From the sequence record MF158044: a DNA stretch of 64,000 nucleotides. One strand, written 5' to 3'. Positions 40,975 through 41,253 of this stretch are shown here, piece after piece (position 1 is the first letter of the stretch; every line of letters begins with the position of its first letter). The notes under the pieces were generated by a model. It had not been told where the DNA came from and ran no database searches. It saw only the letters and a program-made list of their open reading frames with translations. The stretch is from Shigella phage Sf18. The position numbers and the translations under genes were made by a program.

Positions 40975-41103
40975 TTACAGAAGACCGTTTACAGCAAACA
41001 ATAAACAATCTATTTCTCTGGTAAAGAAAAGGCGAAGGTTCGATTCCTTCACACGTTACGGCGTGTTGGTGTAATGGAAGCACTTAAGATAAATACGGTC
41101 TGG
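40975..41103 (+). repeat. structured tRNA-array spacer element, copy 4 (extended, contains tRNA-like arms)
   Basis: 5' ACAGAAGACCG... 3' ...ACGGTCTGG; interior has T-arm-like GAAGG-TTCGATT-CCTTC and D-loop-like GTG-TAATGGAAG-CAC. Confidence 0.45.
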
Positions 41104-41253
41104 TAATCCTCTTTGCAGTGACTTATGGAGCTAACCAGTCGTCCCATGAGTGCCGAAGAGTCTCTTGAGCATGATTCTAGATTAGCTTACTAAGAGACAA
41201 CTCTACAAACCCTTTAGCAAGGTTTGCGTAGGTTACTGCAAAGATGATTTAAT

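Follow-up and report, generated by a model that had tools for sequence, protein, structure and literature searches.

A candidate Y-RNA-type noncoding RNA with a circularly permuted tRNA-like domain in the tRNA operon of Shigella phage Sf18

The DNA analyzed here is a window of 64 kb from Shigella phage Sf18 (MF158044), and coordinates given without a locus number are positions in this window. The phage is a Felix O1-like myovirus, and the part at 40560-41420 is 99.8% identical to Shigella phage Sf13 (Ounavirinae, Mooglevirus). Its transfer RNA (tRNA) operon at 40075-45003 (+ strand), in which ARAGORN recognized 25 tRNAs, starts just past a gene for a Ro60-like protein and two putative promoters. 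The element of interest, M4, is a candidate Y RNA of ~126 nucleotides (nt) with a full tRNA-like domain (40982-41107, + strand). It lies within the operon, on the same strand as the Ro60-like gene and 1.07 kb downstream of it; the product of this gene has no TROVE match in Pfam. A first-pass annotation of the region had noticed a T arm, an acceptor-like hairpin and a D arm in rearranged order, and had offered a circularly permuted tRNA gene, a tRNA remnant or recombination scar, and coincidental hairpins as explanations.

M4 is composed of five helices, i.e. a closing stem, a V arm, a T arm, an acceptor hairpin and a D arm, and all five are found in the minimum free energy fold of 40980-41107. 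The closing stem is formed by AGACCGT (40982-40988) and ACGGTCT (41095-41101), two "spacer repeat" halves that pair mutually and enclose the whole element. Its 5' strand is followed by the single-stranded motif CAGCAA (40992-40997; family consensus C[A/C]GC[A/G]A), a putative contact site for a Ro60-like protein. Then come the V arm TTTCT-CTGGTAA-AGAAA (41013-41029), which resembles an anticodon arm with its stem of 5 base pairs (bp) and loop of 7 nt and presents GGT as "anticodon", the variable loop AGGC of 4 nt (41030-41033), the T arm GAAGG-TTCGATT-CCTTC (41034-41050) and the closed acceptor-like stem ACACGTT-AC-GGCGTGT of 7 bp (41051-41066), in which A41058 takes the discriminator position. 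A U8-G9 linker (41067-41068) leads to the D arm GTGT-AATGGAA-GCAC (41069-41083), with A14 and G18-G19 present, and the 3' strand of the closing stem is followed by the trailer GGTAAT (stem strand and trailer together 41095-41107; family trailer consensus CUG(A/U)UAA). The T arm, the 7-bp hairpin and the TG with its D arm were all found where the first-pass annotation had placed them. The D arm stem, given there as 3 bp, is better read as 4 bp (GTGT/GCAC, one of them a U-G pair), and two parts had been overlooked, namely the V arm and the 7-bp closing helix. As had been claimed, the two halves of a tRNA stand in reverse order, 3' before 5', with a short loop linking the acceptor strands; none of the four tRNA arms is missing. 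The nucleotides of the tRNA elbow are kept as well (U8, A14, G18-G19, T54-psi55-C56 and A58), as read from T41067, the D loop AATGGAA, the T loop TTCGATT and the U-purine linker between acceptor stem and D arm. The canonical Levitt pair 15:48 is not evident in M4, where A15 would face C48.

Un-permuting M4 in silico, by joining 41060-41084 to 41013-41058, resulted in a full cloverleaf that was called tRNA-Thr(GGT) by ARAGORN; in the native order the same program reported neither a tRNA nor a tmRNA. A strict scan of both strands of the window for a T arm, an acceptor-like stem and a D arm in this order returned only M4 and one weaker tandem-tRNA junction. The arrangement of M4 is far beyond chance. 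The idea of meaningless, coincidental hairpins can appeal to a folding energy that is no better than that of shuffled sequences (z = -1.24), but it is refuted by the un-permuted cloverleaf, the near-unique result of the window scan, and the occurrence in other phages, covariation and covariance model matches described below, which leave it a negligible probability. In Rfam 15 the M4 RNA has no family, and no Y RNA family was matched at E ≤ 10. The sole match on M4 was to the tRNA model, with 28.8 bits (gathering score 29) and in a spurious unpermuted register (40984-41058); weak matches to Dicty class I RNA were found on spacers. A donor tRNA within the phage's own array was considered and rejected: un-permuted M4 reaches at best 73% identity to an array tRNA, and the tRNAs among themselves share 66% on average and 80% at maximum.

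The element is kept in ~247 phage records of Felixounavirus, Mooglevirus and SUSP-like phages. Within the Ounavirinae the T and D arms are invariant while the flanks vary. Three versions of the acceptor hairpin exist, each of them fully paired: ACACGTT/GGCGTGT, ACTCGGC/GTCGAGT and ACCCTTC/GAAGGGT. The loop of the third version reads G-CCA-AACA (e.g. GCCA-AACA in phage Mordin). Compensatory changes were found at acceptor pairs 2-71, 3-70 and 5-68. Comparison of the syntenic region thus showed that the element is retained, as the first-pass annotation had suggested checking, and that no ordinary tRNA-Thr(GGU) is present at this site; an intact copy was looked for in the related phages and none exists. 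The "tRNA-Thr-GGT" of 129 nt found in GenBank records of Escherichia phage ASO1B (locus L001, 364-492) and of REP7 is a tRNAscan-SE artefact: its V arm, T arm and 3' acceptor strand are real, but the 5' half with which they are combined is a spurious one from further upstream.

These data bear directly on the possibility that M4 is a decaying remnant, in which halves of two neighbouring tRNAs, 3' of the first and 5' of the second, were left by chance and without function after a tandem duplication. Recombination does occur in these arrays by way of T arms, as seen in Salmonella phage SP116 (locus L004, ~465-500), where a T-arm-to-T-arm deletion fuses M4 to tRNA-Lys(UUU). Both the acceptor hairpin and the D arm are lost in this deletion, along with the downstream structured RNA and the greater part of tRNA-Lys, so that SP116 has no intact M4. 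The CCA and 4-nt spacer of Moogle-type phages moreover resemble an ordinary tRNA-tRNA junction, and a tandem-tRNA junction is a plausible evolutionary origin of the tRNA-like domain. A remnant without function, however, would not be expected to retain 7 acceptor pairs in three different sequences and invariant T and D arms between varying flanks, nor to stay on one strand and at a set position with respect to one particular gene, nor would its five helices be expected to covary among phages with no more than 39-46% identity between their partner proteins. The conservation and covariation across distantly related phages contradict the recombination scar of the first-pass annotation, and we regard it as highly improbable.

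A genuine permuted tRNA gene would give an aminoacylated tRNA-Thr(GGU) decoding ACC and ACU, either by joining of the ends at position 26/27 or as a two-piece tRNA left by a cut of RNase P. The un-permuted cloverleaf with its tRNA-Thr(GGT) call fits this, as do the 7-bp acceptor stem with a discriminator base, the N-CCA encoded right after the 3' acceptor strand in related phages such as Mordin, the pairing of leader and trailer as in the permuted pre-tRNAs of Cyanidioschyzon merolae, and the fact that the only other tRNA-Thr of the array has the anticodon UGU. The anticodon-like loop, however, is not conserved in close relatives. Besides CTGGTAA it reads CCGGTAA (with C33) in most Felixounavirus copies, CGGTAA, of 6 nt, in 8 of 30 loci, and CTATGAA in locus L020, and in Moogle-type phages the arm is degenerate, poorly paired and without a proper stem. 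Decoding by such an RNA is unlikely because of this lack of conservation. Furthermore, CCA is not encoded in M4 while every other tRNA gene of the array that was read does encode it, more distant homologs carry different "anticodons" in their V loops, and the same leader and trailer modules flank RNAs without any tRNA part. To our knowledge bacteria, including enterobacteria, do not have a bulge-helix-bulge splicing endonuclease, and the annotation of Sf13 lists a polynucleotide kinase but no RNA ligase and no CCA-adding enzyme. The permuted topology proposed in the first-pass annotation is therefore upheld by the cloverleaf, but a decoding tRNA gene is very unlikely.

The distribution of the RNA was analyzed in 80 viral loci encoding homologs of the Ro60-like protein, 75 of which are from other phages and encode proteins with 39-46% identity to the window protein. 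In a dozen of these 75 loci a strict scan for T arm, 7-bp hairpin and D arm found the module on the gene strand. Alignments of diverse homologs made with MAFFT misaligned the acceptor hairpin and the D arm and were rejected; a covariance model, R1, was therefore built from a well-aligned set of 13 Ounavirinae sequences only, to which the remaining homologs were aligned by Infernal. R1, which matches M4 itself with 147.8 bits, gave 63 matches at E ≤ 1 in the 75 loci and the window (best E 9e-15), all of them on the gene strand and most of them spanning the full model. At E < 0.05 there were 37 matches, of which 20 lie at most 500 nt and 29 at most 1500 nt from the gene. The recurrent design starts with a 7-bp stem (usually AGNNNNN/NNNNNCU), 2-4 nt and the motif C[A/C]GC[A/G]A, and continues with the tRNA-like domain, the 3' stem strand and G(A/U)UAA. 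A regular-expression scan for stem and motif found 100 modules on the gene strand in 51 of the 75 loci versus 6 on the opposite strand, a result that is no independent evidence for the CAGCAA motif, which is part of the pattern. About a third of these modules have a T arm and the rest are hairpins of ~60 nt. In loci without a tRNA within 4 kb a short module still directly follows the gene, which ties the modules to the gene rather than to tRNA arrays.

Covariation was assessed with the 27 best matches (alignment A7). Paired cells amount to 95.7%, compared to 60% in shuffled and ~40% in slid controls, percentages that are somewhat inflated since A7 was fitted to the structure of the model. Double-sided changes were found in 26 of 28 pairs, with support for every helix, and the covariation score was 0.694 against 0.17 for shuffled and <0.1 for slid alignments. 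The closing stem is paired in 98.4% of cells with double changes at 6 of its 7 pairs, the T arm in 100% with covariation of 4 of 5 pairs, the acceptor stem in 96.5% and the D arm in 96.8%, with covariation of all 7 and all 4 pairs, respectively. The V arm is the least conserved helix (81% paired), and its loop varies in length and sequence. Among 19 diverse sequences C13, G15 and C16 of the motif were invariant and A17 nearly so, and in the T arm G58-C62, A64 and C67 were invariant. All 7 acceptor pairs are present in 18 of the 20 listed homologs, and 7 of the 16 acceptor loops of at least 4 nt begin with N-CCA (P = 2e-9). The 7-bp stem and the N-CCA loops make cleavage by RNase P and a CCA end plausible in many members of the family. 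In unrelated phages (locus L101, 5681-5813; L097, 5790-5920; L055, 8365-8486; all + strand) the V arm frequently has 5 bp in its stem and 7 nt in its loop, which is of the type Y-U-NNN-A-A, with different triplets (GTT, ACG, CAT). The mimicry thus includes the anticodon arm, with an "anticodon" that differs between RNAs.

M4 is accompanied by three short modules in the same operon, all on the + strand, which share the stem, CAGCAA and a GGU-type trailer with M4 and have no tRNA-like domain. M1 (40250-40318), between tRNA-Glu and tRNA-Met, is closed by AGGCCAA (40250-40256) and TTGGTCT (40306-40312), with CAGCAA at 40260-40265 and the trailer GGTCAT; R1 matched it at 40248-40318 with 29.2 bits. 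M2 (40413-40478), between tRNA-Met and tRNA-Asn, has the stem AGGCCGT (40413-40419)/ACGGTCT (40466-40472), which is visible in the minimum free energy fold, CAGCAA and the trailer GGTAAT, and was matched at 40411-40478 (39.8 bits, E 1e-5). Both exactly fill the spacer between their tRNAs. M3 (40894-40967) has the stem AGACCAA (40894-40900)/TTGGTCT (40955-40961), compensatory relative to that of M4, CAGCAA and the trailer GGTTCC; it is conserved in ASO1B, Mordin and SP116.

The Ro60-like gene (38493-39908, + strand) lies directly upstream of the tRNA operon and encodes a protein of 471 amino acids with a helical ring region and a vWA domain. By sequence the protein belongs to Pfam DUF2828 and DUF7788 and to PHROG 850 ("RNA-binding protein"). 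Sequence searches against the Protein Data Bank (PDB) gave only non-significant matches to the Ro60 vWA domain (E 0.66), and with a sequence relation to Ro60 that is barely visible, structure prediction was needed. The AlphaFold2 model (pLDDT 89.2, pTM 0.89) had Ro60/TROVE structures as its top 8 Foldseek matches in the PDB, all over the full length and with E values of 5e-8 to 1e-6. These are the protein of phage phiLo (9KOP, the top match), Xenopus (1YVR, 1YVP, 2I91), human (9NF8, 9NEP) and Deinococcus (2NVO) structures. The query-normalised TM score was 0.54-0.65 for seven of the matches and 0.38 for 2NVO. The predicted fold is a HEAT-repeat ring followed by a vWA domain with a DxSxS MIDAS motif, of which D279, S281 and S283 are invariant. 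More than 2,300 homologs were found at E < 1e-5, including proteins of Felix O1-like coliphages, Yersinia phages and Vibrio phages. A related protein has been studied in phage Bas63, where the Ro60-like gp130, encoded directly upstream of tRNA genes, counters the Ppl defence (PhageMaP preprint 2024, PMC11482910). From the description in this preprint (Felixounavirus, Ro60-like fold, directly upstream of tRNA genes) we infer that the window protein is the counterpart of gp130. The authors speculated that "some tRNA genes are possibly Y RNAs" (PMC11482910), which is the only prior mention found; in the papers searched no identified Y RNA was tied to DUF2828 or to the Ounavirinae.

Model R1, although built from the phage family only, also found two unannotated RNAs with the order T arm, acceptor stem, D arm near a TROVE gene of Streptomyces phage Jada (E 3e-5 and 1.6e-4). 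These YrlA-like RNAs (locus L114, 1927-2039 and 3135-3215, both + strand) have a T arm, a 7-bp closed stem, a D arm and a GGGTCGGAT leader. They lie upstream of a bona fide TROVE gene ("Ro-like RNA binding protein"), which is itself located within a tRNA array.

Taken together, 40982-41107 is likely to encode a Y-RNA-type noncoding RNA of ~126 nt, within the tRNA operon downstream of a Ro60-like gene, and its effector domain would mimic a tRNA in circularly permuted form, as that of YrlA does. The RNA family, which is absent from Rfam 15 and from the papers searched, is apparently undescribed and goes with one clade of phage proteins with a Ro60 fold, that of DUF2828. By analogy with Ro60 and its Y RNAs, the family is probably the partner of the widespread DUF2828 phage protein, and the protein of 38493-39908 is probably the partner of M1-M4. 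Several observations weigh against this. The partnership of protein and RNA is based on genomic linkage and analogy, and gp130 alone, expressed from a plasmid or inserted in T7, counters Ppl (PMC11482910), from which it follows that the Ppl phenotype does not need the phage RNAs. The window protein matches neither TROVE (PF05731) nor vWA_Ro60 (PF25045) in Pfam, while the Jada protein used as a control matches both, and an alignment by hhalign to a phage TROVE protein covers the vWA domain only, with 55% probability. At the RNA level, the YrlA motif GNCGAAN0-1G is absent from the M4 leader (there is no CGAA in 40980-41012), and the folding energy and the fitted covariation alignment mentioned above count on the same side. 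In addition, the acceptor loop of M4 has only 2 nt, the acceptor stem has two terminal G-U pairs and CCA is not present, which makes cleavage by RNase P less certain here than in CCA-bearing homologs.

How M1-M4 would act with the protein can be proposed by analogy with known Y RNAs. Ro60 binds its Y RNAs by the 5' strand of their stem, and the Ro60-like ring may bind the stem/CAGCAA module in a similar manner; CAGCAA holds the place of GNCGAA in YrlA. The tRNA-like domain may recruit or titrate a host factor that recognizes tRNA, candidates being RNase P, the CCA-adding enzyme, modification enzymes, a PNPase-like exoribonuclease and a tRNA-targeting defence nuclease. The RNAs would be freed from the polycistronic transcript by the tRNA-processing machinery as it cuts the flanking tRNAs. 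RNase P probably also cuts on the 5' side of G41060, because the acceptor stem has 7 bp in nearly all listed homologs and N-CCA follows straight after it in many. After such a cut the RNA would consist of two pieces that stay joined through the acceptor and closing stems, which is what has been reported for M. smegmatis YrlA. A more far-reaching proposal, which we consider rather unlikely, is that the phage RNAs, rather than being closed mimics of tRNA, are pro-forms of split tRNA-like molecules, part of a programmable tRNA decoy or sensor particle in the conflict between phage and host defence. RNase P would then cut the acceptor loop and the 3' strand would be trimmed to, or given, N-CCA. 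The resulting two-piece RNA, with a free acceptor end and an anticodon-arm-like V arm, would be clamped by its closing stem on the Ro60-like ring and would either be charged or be taken for a tRNA, whether by the translation apparatus or by an immune nuclease of the host that targets tRNAs. This is compatible with the 7-bp acceptor stem, the N-CCA loops and the varied "anticodons", features that simple mimicry of the elbow does not explain.

Alternatively, M4 and its relatives may be functional RNAs that act independently of the Ro60-like protein, with a linkage that would reflect only a shared operon and shared regulation. They could be elements for processing or stability of the operon, offering entry sites for RNase P, RNase E or RNase III, or free tRNA decoys that soak up a defence nuclease or toxin directed at tRNA. 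Defences that cleave tRNAs are known to be countered by the tRNA arrays of phages, and V loops that are often anticodon-like with different triplets are what decoys would be expected to have. The exact fit of M1 and M2 in tRNA-tRNA spacers points to release by tRNA processing, and the activity of gp130 against Ppl without the RNAs is also in line with an independent role. However, short modules directly follow DUF2828 genes even where no tRNA occurs within 4 kb, so that they are not processing signals of tRNA spacers. A conserved single-stranded motif beside a stem of variable sequence is typical for a protein-binding site, and the pairing of a Ro60 fold with an RNA of the order T arm, acceptor stem, D arm recurs independently with TROVE proteins (Jada; PMC4201824). 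An independent role has a small chance of being correct, and an RNA partner of the Ro60-like protein is the reading that we prefer.

Several other features were observed in and around the operon, all on the + strand. Two sigma-70-like promoters, which are consensus matches only, precede it at 39927-39955 (10/12) and 40017-40046 (11/12, with an extended -10 TG). Between M4 and tRNA-Lys a structured RNA of ~135 nt (41110-41246) has a closing stem of ~23 bp, CTTTGCAGTGACTTATGGAGCT... / ...GTAGGTTACTGCAAAG, with compensatory changes between Moogle-type and Felixounavirus-type phages, a diverging interior and no counterpart in Rfam. It may represent a processing stem of the RNase III type or another noncoding RNA. 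The sequence GCCGAAG in this RNA (~41151) was considered as a YrlA motif and dismissed as chance, since Felixounavirus does not conserve it. At 40635-40718 ARAGORN missed a tRNA-Tyr(GTA) whose variable arm is long (22.8 bits with the Rfam tRNA model); it is tRNA-Tyr in the Sf13 annotation and "tRNA-OTHER" or pseudo in several related records. A further uncalled tRNA-like sequence at 42055-42137 has a perfect acceptor stem (ATGGGAC/GTCCCAT) followed by GCCA, and its T arm is good; its D region is odd, and its anticodon-like loop, which contains a CCA triplet, is oversized. It may be an unusual tRNA-Trp or a pseudogene. Just 3' of tRNA-Asp lies a G+C-rich hairpin, GAGAGGGC-TTGTTA-GCCCCTCCC (40826-40850), and a palindromic repeat of 25 nt, AAGAGTTCTTACGAGTATTCTTTAA (40860-40884), recurs 3 kb downstream at 43891-43915. 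Outside the operon, the polynucleotide kinase of Sf13 is gp67, with its counterpart inferred at ~16940-17635 (+ strand), and a macro-domain protein is Sf13 gp59. A kinase of the Sf13 type without an annotated ligase may bear on the healing of RNA ends.

With M1-M4, concrete RNAs can be assigned to a family of proteins very widespread among phages, and the partnership of Ro60 and Y RNA would be extended to a clade divergent in sequence and with a different recognition motif. The design also provides a searchable signature for RNAs that are now unannotated or mis-called as an intron-containing tRNA-Thr of 129 nt. The E. coli and Salmonella phages that carry it are tractable systems for the long-open role of the tRNA-like domain of Y RNAs, and the locus is an example of a tRNA operon giving rise to regulatory tRNA mimics.

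The decoding tRNAs made from permuted genes in algae and Thermofilum mature by bulge-helix-bulge cleavage and circularisation, with RNase P and tRNase Z also taking part. Such genes were reportedly described in C. merolae, some green algae and Thermofilum by Soma et al. in 2007 and Chan et al. in 2011. M4 resembles the C. merolae type in its upstream 3' half, its acceptor strands joined by a short sequence, its paired leader and trailer and the cloverleaf obtained on un-permuting. It differs in a host without the bulge-helix-bulge machinery, in an anticodon loop that is not conserved and in a leader and trailer that form a module of protein-binding type, common to RNAs without a tRNA part. Permuted ssrA genes are said to yield a two-piece tmRNA, a finding ascribed to Keiler et al. 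in 2000. This is a bacterial precedent for a permuted tRNA-like gene giving two base-paired pieces with a CCA end; unlike it, M4 has no tag reading frame or pseudoknots, is not called as tmRNA by ARAGORN and has an anticodon-arm-like V arm.

Phage Y RNAs are known from mycobacteriophages, CcrColossus, Bacillus phage G and Thermus phage phiLo (PMC12135203), the first three of which make up the phage list of Chen et al. (2014) as summed up in that later paper. In phiLo the Ro60-fold protein phiRo60 has the adjacent Y-like RNAs Yrl1 and Yrl2, in which the 5'-3' stem flanks an internal loop with a conserved motif, as in the phage family described here (PMC12135203; 9KOP, 9L5Y). The phiLo RNAs, however, carry the CGAA motif, and the terms "tRNA-like" and "YrlA" are never used in the text of that paper (PMC12135203). 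The phiLo protein, unlike the window protein, is treated as a Ro60 homolog, and 9KOP is titled "Crystal structure of the Trove domain".

The closest resemblance in part order is to YrlA. This RNA has a 5' GNCGAA motif (GNCGAAN0-1G), a V stem-loop, a T arm, a closed acceptor-like stem, a D arm and paired ends, and adjoins the Ro60 gene on the same strand (Chen et al. 2014; PMC4201824). YrlA of M. smegmatis, with an acceptor stem of 7 bp as in M4, is cut by RNase P and receives CCA (PMC4201824). A member of the YrlA type is further expected to lie no more than ~4 kb from the gene of a Ro60 ortholog, a TROVE-domain protein, to be bound by Ro60/Rsr in vivo and to be modified by TruB and DusA. The crystal structure of the tRNA-like domain has been solved (PDB 6CU1), and YrlA was likened to circularly permuted tRNAs (Wang et al. 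2018; 10.1101/312249). M4 shares with the YrlA RNAs of Salmonella Typhimurium, Mycobacterium smegmatis and mycobacteriophages the same 5'-to-3' order of parts from stem strand to stem strand, the linker (UA or UG in YrlA) and elbow nucleotides, and a place on the same strand, ~1 kb from a gene for a ring-plus-vWA protein of the Ro60 type. YrlA loci likewise have several Y RNAs, some without a tRNA-like domain, and M1-M3 are in this respect analogous to YrlB. The detection of the Jada RNAs beside a TROVE gene by R1 adds to this likeness. The phage family differs from YrlA in a partner that is DUF2828/DUF7788 by sequence rather than TROVE/vWA_Ro60, in a leader with C[A/C]GC[A/G]A after a 7-bp stem and a CUG(R)UAA trailer where YrlA has GNCGAAN0-1G (in the Jada RNAs the motif reads GGGTCGGAT), and in a V arm that often mimics the 5-bp/7-nt anticodon arm. 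Finally, unlike YrlA, M4 is embedded in a tRNA operon, and N-CCA is often encoded in the acceptor loop of its family.

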